DNA of 57,454 nt, taken from positions 1 through 57,454 of the forward strand of contig JBEPVF010000010.1 of assembly GCA_041691135.1 (NCBI GenBank), read 5' to 3'. Position 1 is the first letter of the stretch. The number at the start of each line of letters is the position of its first letter. This DNA is from Candidatus Peribacteria bacterium. Its GTDB lineage: Bacteria > Patescibacteriota > Gracilibacteria > Peribacterales > Peribacteraceae. The position numbers were made by a program, and so were the translations under genes. Shown piece after piece: positions 49,765-57,454 of the stretch. The notes beneath the pieces are model-generated. The model was not told where the DNA came from and did not search any database. It saw only the letters and a list, made by a program, of their open reading frames with translations.

Positions 49765-50805
49765 ATGACATTTCCCTCTCATTCTCATCGCGTTCTGGCG
49801 CTCTCGATTGTCTTCGCCAGTCTCAGCGTGACGGCGTGGAGTCTTGCATCGCCGACGACCGATCTGTCGGCACGTTTGGTGGTTCCGGGCAAGACACTGG
49901 TGGTGCCGTGGCGCACAATTGAGCCGGACGAAATCGTCGCCGGCGCCGTGGTGCCCGCCGATACGCAGACAATCATCAGATTGCCGCTCGACATGCAGCC
50001 GATCACCAAAGAAACGCTCTTTGGCCACCGCGGAAAAAACACGCGCTACTGGGGATACTGCTACCCGGAAGACTACGATCCGAAAGCGGCGACACCGTCG
50101 ACCGGGTTTCCGGGCAAATTGTTCCTTTCCACGGCGGAGATCAACTATCGTCTCAAACGCCAGCAGGATCAGAAGCCGACGTTCACCATTTTGAATCCGC
50201 CGACGACGCCGCAAGATCTGGCACCCGTACCGGGCAGCGAAAACGGCCGCATCCGAAATCAAAAGGAGGTCTTCTATGGCGGCGAAGTGTGTTACGTGAT
50301 GTCCGAACTGCCGCTGCCGATCGGCACGGACGATGATCGGGATGAATTGAATACGTGGGAAGAAAAGTATTACAAAACCGACCCGCAGAATTCCGACAGC
50401 GACGGCGACGGACTCACCGACGGACAGGAAGTGATTTATCTGCACACCGATCCGTTGCTGCGCGACACCGATGGCGACGGCATCATCGACGGCATCGAAG
50501 ACCGCAACCGCAATGGGCGCGTCGACTCGGGCGAAACCGATCCGCTCAATCCCGATTCGGACCGCGACGGTTTGTGCGACGGCTACTGTCGTATTGATCA
50601 GACCGGTCAAATCTGTACCGGCGACACGGCCGCACGCCGCTGCACCAGCCTCACGCCGTTCAAATGGCGTGGCGAGGACAAGAACCTGAACGGCAAAGTC
50701 GATGCCGGCGAAACCGATCCTCTGCAATGGGATACCGGTGCCGATGGTGTCAGTGATCTACAGAAGTATTACAACTGTATTCTGCAGAGTAAGAATGATT
50801 GCTAG
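49765..50805 (+). CDS. Secreted protein with thrombospondin type-3-like Ca-binding repeats
   Basis: Signal peptide; repeats 'TDP..xDSDGDGLTDG.E', 'DTDGDGIIDGIE', 'DSDRDGLCDG'. Confidence 0.85.
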   Translation: MTFPSHSHRVLALSIVFASLSVTAWSLASPTTDLSARLVVPGKTLVVPWRTIEPDEIVAGAVVPADTQTIIRLPLDMQPITKETLFGHRGKNTRYWGYCYPEDYDPKAATPSTGFPGKLFLSTAEINYRLKRQQDQKPTFTILNPPTTPQDLAPVPGSENGRIRNQKEVFYGGEVCYVMSELPLPIGTDDDRDELNTWEEKYYKTDPQNSDSDGDGLTDGQEVIYLHTDPLLRDTDGDGIIDGIEDRNRNGRVDSGETDPLNPDSDRDGLCDGYCRIDQTGQICTGDTAARRCTSLTPFKWRGEDKNLNGKVDAGETDPLQWDTGADGVSDLQKYYNCILQSKNDC

Positions 50806-50831
50806 AATTTAACAAATATGCTATTATATCT

Positions 50832-51353
50832 ATGAACATGCACATCCACTTCAGTCGCCTCCTCACCTTCCTGCTCACACTGTGCGTTGCCGTACCGGCA
50901 TTCGCCTACGTCACGCCTGAGCAAGTGATGATCGACTCGTTTGGCGTGTCGACCACCAAGCACACGCAGCCGTCGCGCCGTGTAATCGAGGATCAAGCCA
51001 ACCAAGCCAACGTCGTGCGCGTACAGAGTCATTTGGAGCCGGTACATGCCGCTGCTCCTGCATCCAGTGCGAGCTCCGTCTCCGCAGCCGAAGGATCATC
51101 GGCCTCTGCAACGGTTTTCGAGGTAGACGCTGTAACGTTACGTCTGCTGCAACGTATCATGAACGAACGCAAGAACCAGTCGGCGGTACAACCGGCTCCC
51201 ATTCTCTACGCCGGGGCGCCGCTCGATCAGATGCAACCTGCCCGTCGTCCTCTTGCTTCAAGCGGTCCCGAGGAGGTTGTTCTACTCGGATTATTCATAG
51301 CCATGGCCGGAACGTTACTGATGGTGAGAAAACTGGAAGCACAGAATCTGTAG
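50832..51353 (+). CDS. Secreted protein with C-terminal LPxTG-like (LASSGP) motif, TM helix and basic tail
   Basis: Signal peptide ending AFA; C-terminus 'PLASSGPEEVVLLGLFIAMAGTLLMVRK'. Confidence 0.75.
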   Translation: MNMHIHFSRLLTFLLTLCVAVPAFAYVTPEQVMIDSFGVSTTKHTQPSRRVIEDQANQANVVRVQSHLEPVHAAAPASSASSVSAAEGSSASATVFEVDAVTLRLLQRIMNERKNQSAVQPAPILYAGAPLDQMQPARRPLASSGPEEVVLLGLFIAMAGTLLMVRKLEAQNL

Positions 51354-51371
51354 AGACAAACAAGATTCACT

Positions 51372-51617
51372 TCAAGGATGTATGGCAATGTGGCTTTCTT
51401 CGCCGTGAACGGAGTAGGACGGTGAGAGCGCACGATGAATCGGCTTATTTCCACGCATCGGCGCAGAAAGCGGCAGCGCCATACTGAAAAATCTCTCACA
51501 GCTCTGGACCAATAACGGCAGCGTTCTTTCGGTGTACGGAACGTCCGAAAAGTCTCTCCCAAGACCAAAAAACCTGCTGCGCGCTTTTTCTTTTATTCTT
51601 TCTGCGGCTGGCAACAT
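51372..51617 (-). CDS. Small hypothetical protein
   Basis: 81-aa ORF filling the gap before recJ; its start is only 23 nt from the divergent recJ start. Confidence 0.4.
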   Translation of the reverse strand: MLPAAERIKEKARSRFFGLGRDFSDVPYTERTLPLLVQSCERFFSMALPLSAPMRGNKPIHRALSPSYSVHGEESHIAIHP

Positions 51618-51640
51618 GTCTCTGCTAGGATCCCAGTCAC

Positions 51641-53317
51641 ATGGCCTTATCTCTTACAGGTCGGCGTTGGCGCGTTCACGATGATTTGCGTGCATCAGTC
51701 GGTTCGATTGATCAACTTCTGGCGCGTCTTGTGCAGGAACGCGGTTTGTCTGATGGAAAGACGGGACTGTCGTCGGTCAACCTTCTTCCCGATCTTCCGC
51801 GCGCTATCGATCGCATCTGGGAGGCCGTCGACCGGCATGAATCAGTCACTGTTTTCGGCGATTACGATTGCGATGGCATCACATCGGCCGCACAGATGGC
51901 ACGATTCTTTCGCCGTCACGGCGCGGAGCCACGCGTTCGTTTGCCGCATCGCCTGCGCGAAGGCTACGGACTTAAGCCGCATCACATCACCGAATGTGCT
52001 GATGCAGGGACGACGCTCCTTATTACGGTGGATACCGGCATCTCCGCGCTCGACGAAGTGCGCCTCGCGCGCCAGCGTGGTATCGATGTCATCATTATCG
52101 ATCACCACCATCTGCGCGAAGAATTGCCCGATGGCGCTCTGTTGCTTCATCCGGCGCTGAGTCTTGCGTATCCGCACCCATACCCGGCGGCATCCGGTCT
52201 CACGTCACTCGTGGTGGCCGCATTGGAGGCGGCGCGTGGAAACATAGAATGGGAAGACCGCCAGACCGATCGTGCGCTCGCGGCACTTGGAACGGTGGCC
52301 GATCTGGTCGAACTGCGTGGCGAGAACCGTACAATCGTCGAACAAGGATTGGCCGCATTCGCCACCATCGGCGGGCCGCTCGCGCTTCTCAAAGAAGCAG
52401 CCGGACTCACCGGGGTCATCACGAGTCGCGATCTTGCGTTTCGTCTGGCGCCACGCATCAATGCTGCCGGTCGAATGGAGAGCCCCGATATTGCCCTTGC
52501 AGCGTTGCAGGGTGATCTCACGGCCTTGCATCACCTGGAAGAACTCAATCGCGAGCGCCAGGAGCGTGTGCGTGCCCTGTGGAACGAATTGCAGCCGCGT
52601 ATCGATCGTGAGGCACCGATGCTCTTTGCTACGAGCGAGCAATACACTCCGGGAATCGTCGGACTTCTCGCCGGTAAGCTTACCGAAGCATTCGGACGGC
52701 CGAGTTTTGTCGGAAGCATCACCGATGGCATCTGCGTTGCCTCGCTCCGCAGCATTCCGGGATATCACGTTACCGAAGGACTGGCGCGTTACGCCGATCT
52801 GCTGGGTCACTTTGGCGGACATGCTCAGGCGGCTGGTGCTTCGTTGTCGGCGGATGCAGTACCCGAACTCACTACGCGCATGTGCGAGGATGTTTTGCAG
52901 TATGTGCGTGTTGAAGAGCTCATTCCCACGCTCGATGTCGATGCTATCGTATCGGCGTCTCAGATATCTGATGCGCTTTGCCAGGGTGTGCGTTCGCTGG
53001 AACCGTTCGGTCAGGGGAATCCGGAACCCCGATTCCTGCTGCACAATATTTCGCTTACCGAGGCACGCGGAGTGGGTGGCAACGGGGCACACCTGCAAGC
53101 CCGCATTGCCGGTCACAAGCTCATTGGTTTCGGCCTTGGCTCGCTGCTGAAAAACACAGATCAACCGCTTGATGTGGTGTGCCGTATGGGATTCGAAACC
53201 TTTCGCGGCCGCACGGCACTGCAATTGTTCGTTGATGATCTCAGAATCGCGGCCGGCGAACAGCAAATACCGACAAATATTCAACAAAATAACTATTCAC
53301 TGACCACTGATCATTGA
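51641..53317 (+). CDS. recJ: ssDNA-specific exonuclease RecJ
   Basis: GDYDCDG, EGYG, TVDTG, DHH, GTVAD, PRINAAGR, GGHAQAAG, PFGQGNPEP. Confidence 0.97.
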   Translation: MALSLTGRRWRVHDDLRASVGSIDQLLARLVQERGLSDGKTGLSSVNLLPDLPRAIDRIWEAVDRHESVTVFGDYDCDGITSAAQMARFFRRHGAEPRVRLPHRLREGYGLKPHHITECADAGTTLLITVDTGISALDEVRLARQRGIDVIIIDHHHLREELPDGALLLHPALSLAYPHPYPAASGLTSLVVAALEAARGNIEWEDRQTDRALAALGTVADLVELRGENRTIVEQGLAAFATIGGPLALLKEAAGLTGVITSRDLAFRLAPRINAAGRMESPDIALAALQGDLTALHHLEELNRERQERVRALWNELQPRIDREAPMLFATSEQYTPGIVGLLAGKLTEAFGRPSFVGSITDGICVASLRSIPGYHVTEGLARYADLLGHFGGHAQAAGASLSADAVPELTTRMCEDVLQYVRVEELIPTLDVDAIVSASQISDALCQGVRSLEPFGQGNPEPRFLLHNISLTEARGVGGNGAHLQARIAGHKLIGFGLGSLLKNTDQPLDVVCRMGFETFRGRTALQLFVDDLRIAAGEQQIPTNIQQNNYSLTTDH

Positions 53318-53324
53318 TAGTCGA

Positions 53325-53549
53325 TCACACTGGTGCCAGTTTTCCTTCCATAAAGAACACTTCCGTCACGTCGACGTTGAGTGCGCGGGAAATTTTGTAG
53401 GCGAGAAGGATGGAAGGATTCGTACGGCCACGTTCGATACTCATGATAGTTTGACGCGAGACGCCGGTGCGCAGAGCCAGTTCTTCCTGGGTCATATTGC
53501 GTTCGAATCGCAGACGCCGGATGGAATTTTTTAATTCAATAGTCGACAT
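53325..53549 (-). CDS. XRE/Cro-family HTH regulator
   Basis: 'NSIRRLR...MTQEELA...VSRQTIMSIERG..NPS'. Confidence 0.92.
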   Translation of the reverse strand: MSTIELKNSIRRLRFERNMTQEELALRTGVSRQTIMSIERGRTNPSILLAYKISRALNVDVTEVFFMEGKLAPV

Positions 53550-53696
53550 GCAAGGGGAGAGAAAGTATGCAGGATCAAAGGACGAAAGTCGATGCTGTTT
53601 TTCGCGGAAAAACGAAGCCTCGGCATTGTACTCACGCCGTTGAAACGAGCAAGTAAACGACGGACTTTCCGCTTGATGACGGCTTCAAATACACGA

Positions 53697-55091
53697 TCAT
53701 TCCTTCTTGGCGGCGCGCAGTAGTTTTTTCTCGGCACGGACGACAAAGAAAGCGCCTCCTGCAACGAAAATAACCGTGGCGGTGCCGATGAGCGAGAGGA
53801 TGATGTGAAGATGTCCGCGCAGGAAGTAACCGATAGCCAGCAGGCATCCGGCCCACACCGCGCAGCCCAGAAACATAGCGACAAAGAAGAGACCGCGGCG
53901 CATATTGGTGGTACCGGCAATGAGCGCGGCGAATGGCCGCACGGCACCGACGAATTGCCCCAGAAAAATACTCACCCGGCCGAAGCGGCTCATAAACATA
54001 TCGACTGTGTGCAGTCGTTTTTCAGTCAGATAAAAGTAATGGGCCACGTCGCGCCCGTACCGTCGGCCGATCAGGAAAAGCACAGTGTTTCCAAGCGTCA
54101 GGCCTGCGACGGCTGCGATAAAAAATACCAACCCGGTTGAAATATCCGACACAAGCGTACCGGCAGTGATCATCGTAAAGACGCCCGGCGAAAAGAAGCT
54201 GAGCGGAGGAATGACTTCGGTGAGGGCGAATGCGAAGATGAAGTAGCCGCCATAGCGGTGCACCGATTGCTGGATGTAATGCGGATCCCACAAATCCTGT
54301 CCATGATAATGATAGGCGAGCAACAGGAGGGCCAACGGAATCAGATAAAAGGAGAAGAGCGCCAATCGAATATGCCCGATGGTACGACGCAACAGCGACA
54401 GCAACAGTGAACTGGTGGCAAAGGAAGCGATGATCGACGCGCTTACGAGTGGGACGGTCACCGTCGCGTGATCAAGCGTCGCGTCGCGCATCGACAGAAC
54501 GAGCGAGGCGACCAGGGTGGGAACAAGGAGCAGACAGGCGAAATCAAAACTATCGCGCCGCGACAAGCCCATGATGCGACCGCTGCCCGTCGCCAGAGCG
54601 ATGGACGAAAAACCCGGAATAAGCGAGAGAGCCTGGAAGATGCCGATGACGAACGCGCGCGGGACAGACAATGATTCGAGTGCCGTGGCCGCCGGAAAGA
54701 ATTCTGTAATCAGCAGAAAGACGCCCATCACGCCGAACGACCAGGCGAGAGATAGCGGATCGGGTTCGTAGCGTTGCAGCAAGGGACGATAGGCGAGTGC
54801 CGCAAGAAGGGTCGGCAGAATGGCTAACAGTATGAGGCCGAACAAGCGACGTGTAGCCGGATGACTGCGGATGACGGATGGACGGAGTCTGCTCCAGGTA
54901 CTTCTGTAGGTTACGATGAGCGCGAGAAGCGTGCCGGTTTGCAGTGCGGGGAGAAGCGAGTGCAAGACGTCGACATCAATATCGATCGGCAGCACGAGTG
55001 CCGGTAAAAGAAGATGTCCGGATGCTGACAGCGGCAGAATTTCTCCGATGCCTTGGACGATCCCGAAGAGGACGGCATATAAAATAGTCAT
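53697..55091 (-). CDS. UppP/BacA-like domain (catalytic residues substituted) fused to a DedA domain
   Basis: N-terminal 'GIVQGIGEILPLSASGH', 'QTGTLLA', 'GIFQALSLIPGFS', 'GLSRRDSFDF' match BacA. C-terminal 'TE...FFSPG', 'GNTVLFLIGRRYG', 'GQFVGAVR...AG' match DedA. Confidence 0.88.
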   Translation of the reverse strand: MTILYAVLFGIVQGIGEILPLSASGHLLLPALVLPIDIDVDVLHSLLPALQTGTLLALIVTYRSTWSRLRPSVIRSHPATRRLFGLILLAILPTLLAALAYRPLLQRYEPDPLSLAWSFGVMGVFLLITEFFPAATALESLSVPRAFVIGIFQALSLIPGFSSIALATGSGRIMGLSRRDSFDFACLLLVPTLVASLVLSMRDATLDHATVTVPLVSASIIASFATSSLLLSLLRRTIGHIRLALFSFYLIPLALLLLAYHYHGQDLWDPHYIQQSVHRYGGYFIFAFALTEVIPPLSFFSPGVFTMITAGTLVSDISTGLVFFIAAVAGLTLGNTVLFLIGRRYGRDVAHYFYLTEKRLHTVDMFMSRFGRVSIFLGQFVGAVRPFAALIAGTTNMRRGLFFVAMFLGCAVWAGCLLAIGYFLRGHLHIILSLIGTATVIFVAGGAFFVVRAEKKLLRAAKKE

Positions 55092-55243
55092 ACCTGATCA
55101 GAGCATACGCGATGGTTGCCGAAGTTCGAAGGCCAACAACGATAGGCGGCCTGTATCCTTCCAGTCATCAGCGCATAACTACGCTGTGCTGACTACCTGT
55201 CCTGAATGGCCATTCAGAGACATTTTTGATACCATTCATGTAA

Positions 55244-55723
55244 ATGACGTCCTCACCGTTCCACGGCATCTTCAGTTCCCTCGGCGAAGAGGACAGCGAA
55301 GCGAAATCAATTTTCTCGTTCGGTTCATCCAAAAAATCTTCAGTGCCACCTACTCCTCAACCTTCTGCCAATCATGCCGCATCACCGCAGGATGGCATTG
55401 GACGCATGGCAGTCGATATTTACGAGCAGGATGACTACTACATCATCAAGGCACCCATCGCGGGCGTACGCCTCTCGGATTTGGACATCGAAGTGAACGA
55501 GAACGTCCTGACCATCCGCGGGCACCGCCGCCAGACCGACATGCTTCCGCAGAATCAATATTATTTGCAGGAGTGTTACTGGGGTTCCTTCAGTCGTTCC
55601 ATTACGTTGCCGTGCCAAATCGATGCCAAGCGCGTGAAGGCGACCTTCAATAAAGATTGCATTCTGAAGGTGCTGGTGCCGAAGGAGGAGAAGATCAAGA
55701 TCGTGAGGATTGCGGAAGGATAA
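55244..55723 (+). CDS. Small heat-shock protein (Hsp20)
   Basis: 'VDIYE', 'LTIRG', 'ECYWGSFSRSITLP', 'ILKVLVPK', C-terminal IxI-like motif. Confidence 0.93.
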   Translation: MTSSPFHGIFSSLGEEDSEAKSIFSFGSSKKSSVPPTPQPSANHAASPQDGIGRMAVDIYEQDDYYIIKAPIAGVRLSDLDIEVNENVLTIRGHRRQTDMLPQNQYYLQECYWGSFSRSITLPCQIDAKRVKATFNKDCILKVLVPKEEKIKIVRIAEG

Positions 55724-55847
55724 TTGGTGATGAGGAAACCGACGAGCGTTCTTCATGGAACACTCTTCCTATTTTCATATTCCATCAGACAGCAAAGAAG
55801 CGCGCAGTTGAGGAGTACATAAAATCCTCGGTTCGCTGTTGGTTGTT

Positions 55848-56105
55848 CTACTTGTGCGCTCCCTTCTTCACCGTCTTCAATTTCTGATCCACTTCCTGAG
55901 GCAGATTCTGCAGCGCTTCATACACATCCATACCACCCATGTAGCGCCAGTCAGCTTGCTTCAAAACTTCTTTGAACTCCTTCACTTCGCGGCGCGTATC
56001 GCGGATCGTTTCGGCATCCTGAAGGTCCATGCGCAAGCGCTGAAGCAGCTTCACTTGCAGAACATACAGCGTGTGGACGCGGTCCAAGGCAGACAGTTTC
56101 GACAT
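55848..56105 (-). CDS. Small helical hypothetical protein
   Basis: 85-aa ORF MSKLSALDRV... with host-like codon usage. Confidence 0.7.
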   Translation of the reverse strand: MSKLSALDRVHTLYVLQVKLLQRLRMDLQDAETIRDTRREVKEFKEVLKQADWRYMGGMDVYEALQNLPQEVDQKLKTVKKGAHK

Positions 56106-56312
56106 AGGATTTGGGTGAATGTTTCTGGTCATTGTAGCGATTTTGGCTCCCAGAGTCAATTGTAGCCCTCTTTTACTACGTAAAATCCGGTTTTTTGTGT
56201 CATAATAATCGAAACAGCCCGTCTTCATGGCGGCAGAGACATATTGTGATTTACCGGGAATTCCGCTTTCATAAGCGTCTCAGCCTAACTTTTGCACATA
56301 ATCACCTCCAGA

Positions 56313-57143
56313 ATGCAACTCACTCAAGCAATCTTACCTGTGGCGGGGCTCGGAACCCGGTTCCTCCCCTGGACCAAAGTCGTTCCCAAGGAACTGCTGC
56401 CCATCGGTAACAAGCCGATCATCGCGCTGCTCGTCGACGAATGTTTGTCGGTCGGCATCACTGATATCTGCTTTGTCATCAGTCGCGGCAAGGAGGCGAT
56501 CCCGCAATACTTCAACGCCATGCCTGAACTTGAGAGTGAGCTCGAGAACCGCGGCAAGCTCCACATGCTCGAAGATCTGAACCGCTACGACAACATCCGC
56601 TTCCATGTTGTATACCAGGAAAATATGAAGGGCGATGGCCATGCGCTGCTGCATGCATTCGATTGGATCAACAGCGATCACGTAGCTGTGCTCTTTGGTG
56701 ACGATCTGATCGTCGGCGACAAGAACGGTCTGCAGCAACTCCGCGATGCCTACGAACATATCTCATCACACGACGATGTTGCGATGCTGAGCCTGCAAGA
56801 CGTACCGCGCGAAATGGTCTCGAAGTATGGCATCGCCGATCTCGATCTGTCACACATCACATCACATGAACGTTTGAAGAAAGTGAAAGGTCTGGTGGAG
56901 AAACCATCACCCGCCGATGCGCCCAGTACTTTCGGTGTTGTCGGGAAATACATCATTCCGAAAAGCGTGTTCCAAACGTTGCACACTATCGAAGCTGGAT
57001 CCAAAGACGGTGAAGTGCGGCTTATTGATGCGCTTATCAAAGATCTTGGAAGCACGAACGTGTACGGTTATGTGTTCGAGGGCACACGATTGGATACCGG
57101 TACGCCGGAAGGATACAAAGAGGCGGTGAGGATGCTGGGGTGA
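56313..57143 (+). CDS. galU: UTP-glucose-1-phosphate uridylyltransferase
   Basis: AGLGTRFLP.TK..PKELLP, GDD, VEKP, GE..L.DA, RLDTG. Confidence 0.93.
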   Translation: MQLTQAILPVAGLGTRFLPWTKVVPKELLPIGNKPIIALLVDECLSVGITDICFVISRGKEAIPQYFNAMPELESELENRGKLHMLEDLNRYDNIRFHVVYQENMKGDGHALLHAFDWINSDHVAVLFGDDLIVGDKNGLQQLRDAYEHISSHDDVAMLSLQDVPREMVSKYGIADLDLSHITSHERLKKVKGLVEKPSPADAPSTFGVVGKYIIPKSVFQTLHTIEAGSKDGEVRLIDALIKDLGSTNVYGYVFEGTRLDTGTPEGYKEAVRMLG

Positions 57144-57197
57144 TTTTTATACAACCAAATAGTCCGTTGTTCCTGAACAGACTGCTGATTAAGTTTA

Positions 57198-57274
57198 TGG
57201 CGGAGCTGACGGGATTCGAACCCGCGACCTCTTCCGTGACAGGGAAGCGCTCTAACCAGCTGAGCTACAGCTCC
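57198..57274 (-). tRNA. tRNA-Asp (GTC)
   Basis: Minus strand: GGAGCTG TA GCTCAGCTGGTTAGAGC G CTTCC CTGTCAC GGAAG AGGTC GCGGG TTCGAAT CCCGT CAGCTCC GCCA. TATAAT lies about 10 nt upstream. Confidence 0.98.
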
Positions 57275-57302
57275 ACATGAGTGGATTATAAAGGTGTTTT
57301 TG

Positions 57303-57454
57303 TGGAGCGCAGCGATTATTTCCCAACGCCTCGGTTGCGACCTCGGCTAGGCCAGCTGAGCTACAGCTCCACGTAAGGTGGAAAGAAAAGAACATCGGAT
57401 GGAGCGCAGCGATTATTTCCCAACGCCTCGGTTGCGACCTCGGCTAGGCCAGCT
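57303..57454 (-). repeat. Tandem 70-bp repeats carrying the tRNA-Asp 5' end, separated by 26-27-nt unique spacers; truncated by the window end
   Basis: 57303-57357 is identical to 57400-57454. 57352-57372 is identical to 57256-57276 (tRNA 5' end). The period is 96-97 bp. Confidence 0.9.

Follow-up and report, generated by a model that had tools for sequence, protein, structure and literature searches.

The far end of contig JBEPVF010000010.1 from a Candidatus Peribacteria bacterium carries a tRNA-Asp gene preceded by tandem repeats of a 70-nt unit, each of which begins with a copy of the 5′ end of that same tRNA. This contig (C10 of a 35-contig, 1.74-Mb genome bin that we refer to as G000) is, at its full 57,454 nt, the window analyzed here. 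Related units precede many tRNA genes across the family Peribacteraceae, and on balance we favor the reading that they are lineage-specific pseudo-tRNA leader units, i.e. tRNA-sized stumps of a duplicated downstream tRNA gene. In such a stump, the first 18–19 nt would stay identical to the working gene, the tRNA body would be replaced by a conserved segment of ~50 nt (the core), and the normal pyrimidine-rich tRNA leader would come after the core. The unit is neither a guide array nor a decoding tRNA, and its function is unproven. It is apparently an undescribed, family-wide module of these ultra-small bacteria: no description of it was found in full-text literature searches or in passages of the Peribacter genome paper (PMC4736985).

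All features of the array lie on the minus strand of the window. The intact tRNA-Asp(GUC) gene, with its CCA encoded, spans 57198..57274 (ARAGORN; Rfam RF00005, 74.1 bits), and just 3′ of it a consensus scan detects a terminator-like hairpin with a T-rich tail (57161..57183, 8 pairs and then ATTTGGTTGT). Read in the direction of the tRNA, the order is unit 2, a 27-nt spacer, unit 1, a 26-nt spacer, two leader nucleotides, and tRNA-Asp. Unit 1 is complete (57303..57372, 70 nt), matches a covariance model of the family (R1) with an E-value of 9.4e-15, and consists of the tRNA copy, CCUA, a hairpin, GU, an A-rich tract, and a GC-rich 3′ segment with a GCUCCA end. Its 5′ part (57352..57372) is 100% identical to 57256-57276, that is, to the 2 leader nucleotides plus positions 1–19 of tRNA-Asp: the acceptor 5′ strand, U8 and A9, the D-stem 5′ strand, and the D-loop through G18 and G19. 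The hairpin occupies unit positions 26–45 (57328..57347) and is homologous to the covarying hairpin of relatives described below, the A-rich tract lies at 57314-57325 (alignment A1), and the GC-rich segment lies at 57303-57313, its final 5–7 nt pairing with the first bases of the unit in the predicted fold. Unit 2 is represented by positions 16–70 (57400..57454), which end together with the contig and are 100% identical to unit 1 over these 55 nt. The spacers differ in sequence. The proximal one (57277..57302), between unit 1 and the leader dinucleotide, contains a perfect TATAAT (57285-57290) that lies 10 nt ahead of the start of tRNA-Asp, while the distal one (57373..57399) holds a pyrimidine-rich leader motif, GAUGUUCUUUUC, that also occurs in the spacers of relatives. 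An earlier note, made from the letters of the window alone, had thus correctly described at least two copies of the unit, the 21 nt taken from the leader and the tRNA, the two spacer lengths, and an array that runs off the window.

Within its own genome, BLAST finds copies of the unit confined to C10. ARAGORN, run over 50000-57454, calls tRNA-Asp alone and no tRNA in the units, and an Rfam cmscan of 57303-57454 (E up to 10) gives zero matches. Misassembly, which the earlier note had named as grounds for discarding the array, has left no sign in the unitigs of run X1: these hold both the tRNA–spacer 1–unit junction and the unit–spacer 2–unit junction, although X1 is probably the source sample and is therefore not independent of the bin. 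Unitig depth is 19.2 in the single-copy flank, 15.2 at the tRNA–spacer 1–unit junction, 60.2 in the 70-nt unit, and 43.6 at the unit–spacer 2–unit junction. These depths, which answer the call for a unit count, suggest about 3–4 units at tRNA-Asp, and a layout that would fit them is flank, 3–4 units joined by 2–3 copies of spacer 2, spacer 1, and tRNA. The 55-nt terminal overlap would then be the trace of a repeat in a de Bruijn assembly. Further units probably lie beyond the contig end, and a contig continuing the array past that end is absent from the bin. As a loose end of the array, one X1 contig departs from the unit at 57372 into other sequence.

The exact unit is restricted to C10, and related units stand before many tRNA genes across the family, so that the earlier proposal to look for the unit elsewhere, next to other tRNAs, succeeded for the module rather than for its precise sequence. 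A 17-base pattern across the junction of tRNA copy and core occurs at 34 places in 185,579 species genomes; 24 of these fall in Peribacteria/Peregrinibacteria bins and have the whole unit, while the other 10, in other phyla, are without the remainder of the unit. Model R1, built from 24 units, matches 147 of the 151 genomes of the Peribacteraceae at E≤0.01, where the weaker matches may be true tRNAs that fit the tRNA-like part of the model. The best match reaches E≤1e-5 in 104 of the 151 (our count from the table), which sets aside the concern that there might be only two copies with no conservation. At the same threshold, R1 hits 12 of 15 Peribacteraceae genomes versus 0 of 135 genomes from 33 other families of the same class. 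NCBI taxonomy places the Peribacteraceae in Peregrinibacteriota, within the candidate phyla radiation (CPR) group.

Matches per genome range from 0 to 22. Units are borne by at least 13 tRNA types (Ala, Arg, Asn, Asp, His, Ile, Lys, Met, Phe, Pro, Thr, Trp, and Val), and in one genome (G079) 17 tRNA genes have them. They share the strand of the tRNA and lie ~94 nt upstream of it, in arrays of 1 to about 4 tandem units, with at least 4 in one bin. Three well-assembled genomes have 30 R1 matches between them, 21 of which sit 7–27 nt upstream of a same-strand tRNA; six others lie farther upstream by one or two units, a single one overlaps a tRNA, and two are tRNA copies interrupted in the D-loop. 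A further 12 weaker matches that were fetched all proved to be units upstream of tRNAs as well. Among 54 tRNAs (loci L068-L124), 42 have their own first 12 nt (≤2 mismatches) copied 78–294 nt upstream, mostly at a spacing of 90–98 nt per unit, and 10 of these 42 have 2–3 tandem units. The loci in these comparisons were chosen with a model that holds a tRNA-like part, the genomes are related, so that significance tests overstate, and most assemblies are fragmented at exactly these repeats.

Across the family, the consensus starts with tRNA positions 1 to G18/G19, tracking the D-loop variant of each tRNA, and continues with CCYAG, a GC hairpin of 6–8 bp with a loop of 3–4 nt, CGU, 8–12 A-rich bases, and GCKCG, often with AUCC next, before the pyrimidine-rich spacer. 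The left junction of the core always falls after G18/G19, whichever of the at least 13 tRNA types is copied. Covariation across relatives, which the earlier note had recommended examining, supports a single hairpin at unit positions 26–45. It is paired in 96.3% of cases versus 75.0% in shuffles and has 34 double-change cells versus 8.1 (0 of 500 shuffles reach 34), and slid controls are 30–59% paired. In the window unit, this hairpin takes the form of 3 bp GCC, tandem G.A/A.G, 3 bp GGU, and the loop CGCA.

The note had further seen an acceptor-like stem, ending in CCA, that closes the unit around two inner helices. The window unit does fold in this way (−29.0 kcal/mol, only modestly better than shuffles: z −1.76, with 8 of 200 folding as well), and its closing stem of 5–7 bp, followed by A, forms a duplex of −14.8 kcal/mol, the strongest of 26 units. 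Support in the family is weak. When 5′/3′ duplexes of the same unit were compared with mismatched pairs, with tRNA type as a natural control, the means were −8.9 (own) versus −7.9 kcal/mol (cross; p 0.013, among units that are related) and 7 of 26 units fell in the best decile; a second test placed 8 of 40 there. As both tests are only weakly above the mismatched controls, the closing stem exists in a minority of units, where we read it as a remnant of the tRNA acceptor 3′ strand. The CCA is present as letters, but both of its C residues are paired, in the 3′ strand of the closing stem. As for the inner helices, both belong to the single-sequence optimum and GGU/ACC is the top of the family hairpin, whereas CCTAGC/GTTGGG finds no comparative support. 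Pairing between the A-rich tract and the spacer is not favored either (own −3.9 versus cross −4.6 kcal/mol; best decile, 1 of 40 units). Neither 16S rRNA nor RNase P RNA contains a complement to the conserved D-loop/CCUAG stretch. A tRNA identity of the unit was rejected, with ARAGORN and Rfam negative and a consensus of a single hairpin rather than a cloverleaf. Judged by its sequence, the unit would nevertheless be colinear with a tRNA: the hairpin may take the anticodon-arm slot, GU the variable-loop slot, and remnants of the acceptor 3′ strand the end, and to our eyes GCKCG(AUCC) resembles the T-loop and the 3′ strand of the T-stem.

Such colinearity is in keeping with a stump of a duplicated tRNA gene, and unit plus spacer (~94 nt) is the size of a tRNA plus an intergenic spacer. 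Upstream of the first unit, the sequence is usually spacer-like, so the repeated block is leader plus tRNA 5′ part. In 18 of 20 units, copy positions 1–7 are those of the tRNA; the preceding 10 leader nucleotides agree at a mean of only 4.5/10, and the copy follows five different tRNA-Asp acceptor sequences in all five genera read. Arrays would grow, shrink, and keep their identity to the tRNA 5′ end via slipped or unequal recombination between the 5′ segments, which would account both for the tandem identical units and for the contig breaks there; selection for identity is an alternative cause of the tRNA-identical copy. At two loci of another genome (G064 C1), the core interrupts the D-loop of a second, otherwise near-complete tRNA copy that lies beside an intact gene and retains its 3′ part: one of a tRNA-Arg-gcg pair at ~58.4-58.8 kb (L112) and one of a tRNA-Ile-gat pair at ~1203.0-1203.5 kb (L118). 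These core-interrupted copies look like intermediates or recombinants. Separately, in G000 two tRNA-Tyr(gta) calls lie 130 nt apart (C1:2235-2319 and C1:2449-2534), the first of which deviates at its 5′ end (one additional T, and ACC for AGC) and may be a spare or decaying copy.

The spacers bear the marks of tRNA leaders. Tandem units of relatives have spacers that match each other exactly or almost so and that share a leader motif with other tRNA genes, and the 45–50 nt before each tRNA have a position-specific composition. The motif TGTTCTTT occurs 5 times within 5–140 nt upstream of tRNA genes of the window's genome versus 0.24 expected; the distal spacer of the window has a motif of this type, and related motifs occur in the 16S leader. 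As a lead, the spacer motif may be regarded as a boxA-like candidate. The 16S rRNA gene itself (G000 C9:2933-4401, minus strand) has a leader with a TTGACC-N17-TAAGAT promoter-like site and a boxA-like UGCUUCUUUGUUG. At the base of the long 16S processing stem, also on C9, stands a GAUCAUUCAC motif that resembles the tRNA spacer motifs. Searches of spacers plus flanks returned one 25-nt chance match among phages (E 0.1) and zero among plasmids, so that the database comparison urged by the earlier note yielded nothing significant.

Under the leader-unit reading, units would be transcribed in the direction of the tRNA, within its precursor, and removed by ordinary tRNA processing. The core, kept in more than 100 genomes, may then serve a cis role in tRNA expression or processing, or its own propagation. 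Strand biases in the hairpin weakly point to an RNA read in the tRNA direction: the 5′ arm is pyrimidine-rich (C-G 215 versus G-C 127; U-A 55 versus A-U 8), and among 61 distinct hairpins, wobble pairs number 6 on the tRNA-sense strand and 1 on the opposite strand. Several observations weigh against this reading. The wobble comparison comprises 7 events from related sequences. Consensus folds contain the single hairpin and no closing stem, with no other structure supported, and the single-stranded motifs CCYAG, CGU, A-rich, and GCKCG are strongly conserved, which a mere relic does not explain. In RNA runs X20 and X23, coverage is essentially of the conserved tRNA alone; one X20 contig does hold a relative's unit together with 255 nt of upstream flank, and it could be DNA carry-over. 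Among tRNAs with units, a strict −10-like hexamer precedes the first unit in 9 of 57 cases and the tRNA itself in 12 of 57; among tRNAs lacking units, it precedes 12 of 41. These counts do not place the promoter, so units could be upstream of the transcription start at some loci, and given the perfect TATAAT in the proximal spacer, the tRNA-Asp of the window may have its own start. Finally, the counts lean towards tRNAs with a UAGCUCAG D-arm because the model used to find loci includes the tRNA-like part.

Four other explanations have been weighed. The core may be a small, non-autonomous insertion element that targets the tRNA D-arm after G18/G19, with the units as selfish or neutral passengers and the conserved motifs serving a putative trans-acting enzyme; we consider this possible, though rather unlikely. 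Because insertion into a working gene would be lethal, such an element would survive in spare or partial tRNA copies. The earlier note had entertained a footprint of this kind, and part of the idea is borne out by the junction fixed after G18/G19 at the at least 13 tRNA types, by the two D-loop-interrupted copies in G064, and by an analogous hairpin at T12|C13 (see below), which is unrelated, two-tiered, and placed exactly at that point of similar stumps in many phyla. The variable copy number (0–22 model matches per genome) fits as well, as do the cores of G079 at tRNA-Ile and three tRNA-Pro genes, which share one hairpin, unlike the tRNA-Ile units of other genera, and the small GIY-YIG genes directly 3′ of four tRNA genes in G000. 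Yet hairpin stems differ between units of one genome, and the five units of G000 have five different stems, so there is no sign of recent transposition. Viral contigs are without copies (4 pattern matches are chance, in unrelated sequence lacking the rest of the unit), the 103 flanking reading frames scanned include no linked nuclease or transposase, and in three genomes none of the small GIY-YIG genes is near a unit. Plain insertion would also leave the ever-present intact downstream tRNA, with its own leader, unexplained. Alternatively, the unit may act in trans as a mini-tRNA mimic, a stable RNA of ~70 nt with an RNase P-cut 5′ end and a trimmed 3′ end that carries the cognate acceptor 5′ strand and D-loop and serves as a decoy or regulator aimed at enzymes or toxins that recognize that tRNA. 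We think this improbable. A tRNA-mimic RNA processed by RNase P/Z had been among the readings of the earlier note. The acceptor-like stem of the window unit, closing over 5–7 bp and then A at −14.8 kcal/mol, is what such an RNA would have, and in some units the 3′ strand still matches, with changes that look compensatory (L124 Phe, L006/L073 Asp); likewise, the copy follows species-specific tRNA-Asp acceptors in 5/5 genera and is tRNA-identical at positions 1–7 in 18/20 units. However, recombination alone can explain the identity of the 5′ segment, the closing stem is weakly above mismatched pairings (−8.9 versus −7.9 kcal/mol; 7/26 and 8/40 in the best decile) and missing from the consensus fold, and tRNA models give the unit no score at all; having no T-arm, the unit would be a poor RNase P substrate.

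A role at the level of DNA, as a module upstream of the tRNA promoter, appears slightly less probable again. Here, the A-tract would work as an UP-like element, the GC motif would be close to the −35 position of a promoter in the spacer, and tandem units would multiply that promoter. The geometry is suggestive, since the A-tract (−50 to −43) and the GC motif (−42 to −34) keep a fixed distance from the tRNA start, the period of ~94 nt equals ~9 helical turns, and the proximal spacer of the window has its TATAAT. But in two such regions, the window's included, no full sigma-70 site emerged from a strict scan for both promoter hexamers, and −10-like hexamers are not commoner before unit-bearing (12/57) than before unit-less tRNAs (12/41). 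Moreover, a covarying hairpin with sense-strand wobble pairs speaks for RNA rather than duplex DNA, and the module leaves the tRNA copy unexplained. Far less credible than any of these is the Cas-less repeat–spacer guide array that the note had also proposed, or an assembly artefact, even if identical repeats with two different spacers at a contig end could look like either. Against the artefact stand the two junctions in the X1 unitigs and the recurrence of this architecture in over 100 further assemblies. We reject the guide array because the spacers are leader-like and without a phage or plasmid match; in relatives, they are repeated along with the units, which number at most about 4 and always precede the tRNA that they copy. 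An array of the CRISPR (clustered regularly interspaced short palindromic repeats) type was likewise discarded, with 1 to ~4 units, identical tandem spacers in relatives, and no linked effector or adaptation genes (103 open reading frames at 41 loci). For Peribacter, passages of the genome paper give 46 tRNA genes and no CRISPR–Cas (PMC4736985).

The neighborhood of the units was surveyed by a Pfam scan that took in 103 of 216 flanking open reading frames (ORFs), at 41 loci. These encode heterogeneous housekeeping genes, together with 1 GIY-YIG, 3 serine recombinases, and 1 DDE transposase. The expectation that a nuclease or transposase might accompany the array was not borne out, as neither is linked to the units among these 103 ORFs. 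The upstream gene is co-directional in 22 cases and divergent in 20, and this lack of orientation bias speaks against the units serving generally as 3′ end signals of upstream mRNAs. Large serine recombinase genes adjoin unit-bearing tRNA genes in 3 of the 41 loci (L082, L102, and L107), outside the repeat; these loci possibly represent integrative elements that use the same tRNA genes. Of the 6 small GIY-YIG ORFs of G000 (91–138 aa), 4 lie 20–260 nt downstream of same-strand tRNA genes, namely Val-cac, Gly-ccc, Pro-tgg, and Leu-cag, two of which have partial 5′ copies upstream. The GIY-YIG sites are C3:14038-14247 (+), C3:96322-96534 (+), C1:144665-144865 (−), and C1:92071-92292 (+). In three other genomes, 0 of 7 small GIY-YIG genes lie within 4 kb of a unit.

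A second hairpin element was observed at partial tRNA copies. It is 30–50 nt long, forms a two-tier hairpin of the pattern YCCRYC-TTCG ... ACGSCGGR followed by a CAGG-like sequence, and sits exactly between T12 and C13 of the copies, once inside a unit of the family type. One example lies upstream of tRNA-Thr(tgt) in G000 (C4:49944-50053, minus strand), and further loci are L075, L119, L137/L225, L139/L164, and L147-L266. A pattern scan gives at least 123 matches in at least 120 loci, from phyla that include Patescibacteria lineages, Bacteroidetes, Ignavibacteriae, Verrucomicrobia, Gammaproteobacteria, and Omnitrophota. Among the matches listed, an intact tRNA start follows within 250 nt downstream in 65 of 123, and the median period is 100 nt. 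Rfam assigns no family to 10 of these loci. Taking both elements together, a two-part proposal can be tentatively put forward, which we rate as speculative and, as a whole, doubtful. Up to one-third of Peribacteraceae tRNA genes may carry a selected pseudo-tRNA leader RNA that reproduces the acceptor 5′ strand and D-loop of the cognate tRNA and either influences tRNA biogenesis or serves as a cognate-specific decoy for nucleases that target tRNAs, and the unit and the T12|C13 element may be branches of a wider class of tiny, D-arm-specific hairpin elements that colonize spare tRNA copies in many phyla.

The repeats expose an annotation gap, in that a motif without a match in Rfam 15 occupies many tRNA leaders across a CPR family. 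Should the unit be cis-acting, it would add a novel type of leader element to pre-tRNAs, in bacteria for which hardly any work on RNA processing exists. A selfish unit would, along with the T12|C13 hairpin, indicate that small elements make use of the part of tRNA genes that is most conserved and persist in copies that serve as decoys. In practice, assemblies break at tRNA loci because of these repeats, which may also be taken in error for tRNA pseudogenes or CRISPR-like arrays and which constitute a diagnostic marker for Peribacteraceae.

Known systems resemble the units in part. Attachment sites of integrative elements (attL/attR) likewise present a direct repeat of part of a tRNA beside the intact gene. 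In the Peribacteraceae, however, the 5′ rather than the 3′ part is copied, the same core recurs at many tRNAs and in tandem multiples, and copy and gene are separated by only ~75 nt, with no integrase and no cargo. Duplication of an att site by an integrative element was therefore rejected, on account of these ~75 nt between the repeats and of nearby serine recombinases (3/41 loci) that stand outside the repeat. REP/BIME sequences, Rickettsia palindromic elements (RPEs), and hairpins like those of miniature inverted-repeat transposable elements (MITEs) are short and GC-rich, have conserved flanks, reach many copies, and can sit in RNA genes. The units share these traits, in that they have a GC-rich hairpin between conserved bases, are numerous within a genome, and lie inside copies of RNA genes. 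Unlike these, copies of the unit in one genome are not near-identical, with structure and flanks alone conserved, and their sole location is the D-loop junction of tRNA copies; no enzyme, RAYT-like or other, was identified. Near-identical dispersed copies of the REP/RPE/MITE kind were rejected, the exact unit being confined to C10 and the five units of G000 having five stems. Regarding insertion bounded by its target, the left junction is fixed at G18/G19, and the tRNA sequence resumes after the core in 2 loci only.

The closest parallel that we have considered is tyrT of Escherichia coli, where tandem 178-bp repeats lie downstream of the tRNA-Tyr gene, each starting with the last 19 bp of the tRNA. 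The tyrT repeats are made and resized by unequal recombination and are co-transcribed with the tRNA. Like them, the units described here are tandem repeats that adjoin a tRNA gene and each carry a short, exact copy of one tRNA end, and unequal recombination and co-transcription, both of which we infer for the Peribacteraceae, would extend the likeness. The units differ from tyrT in that they copy the 5′ end, lie upstream, and are tRNA-sized (70 nt plus a 25-nt spacer), and in that they have a conserved, covarying hairpin and recur, family-wide, at up to 17 tRNA genes per genome.

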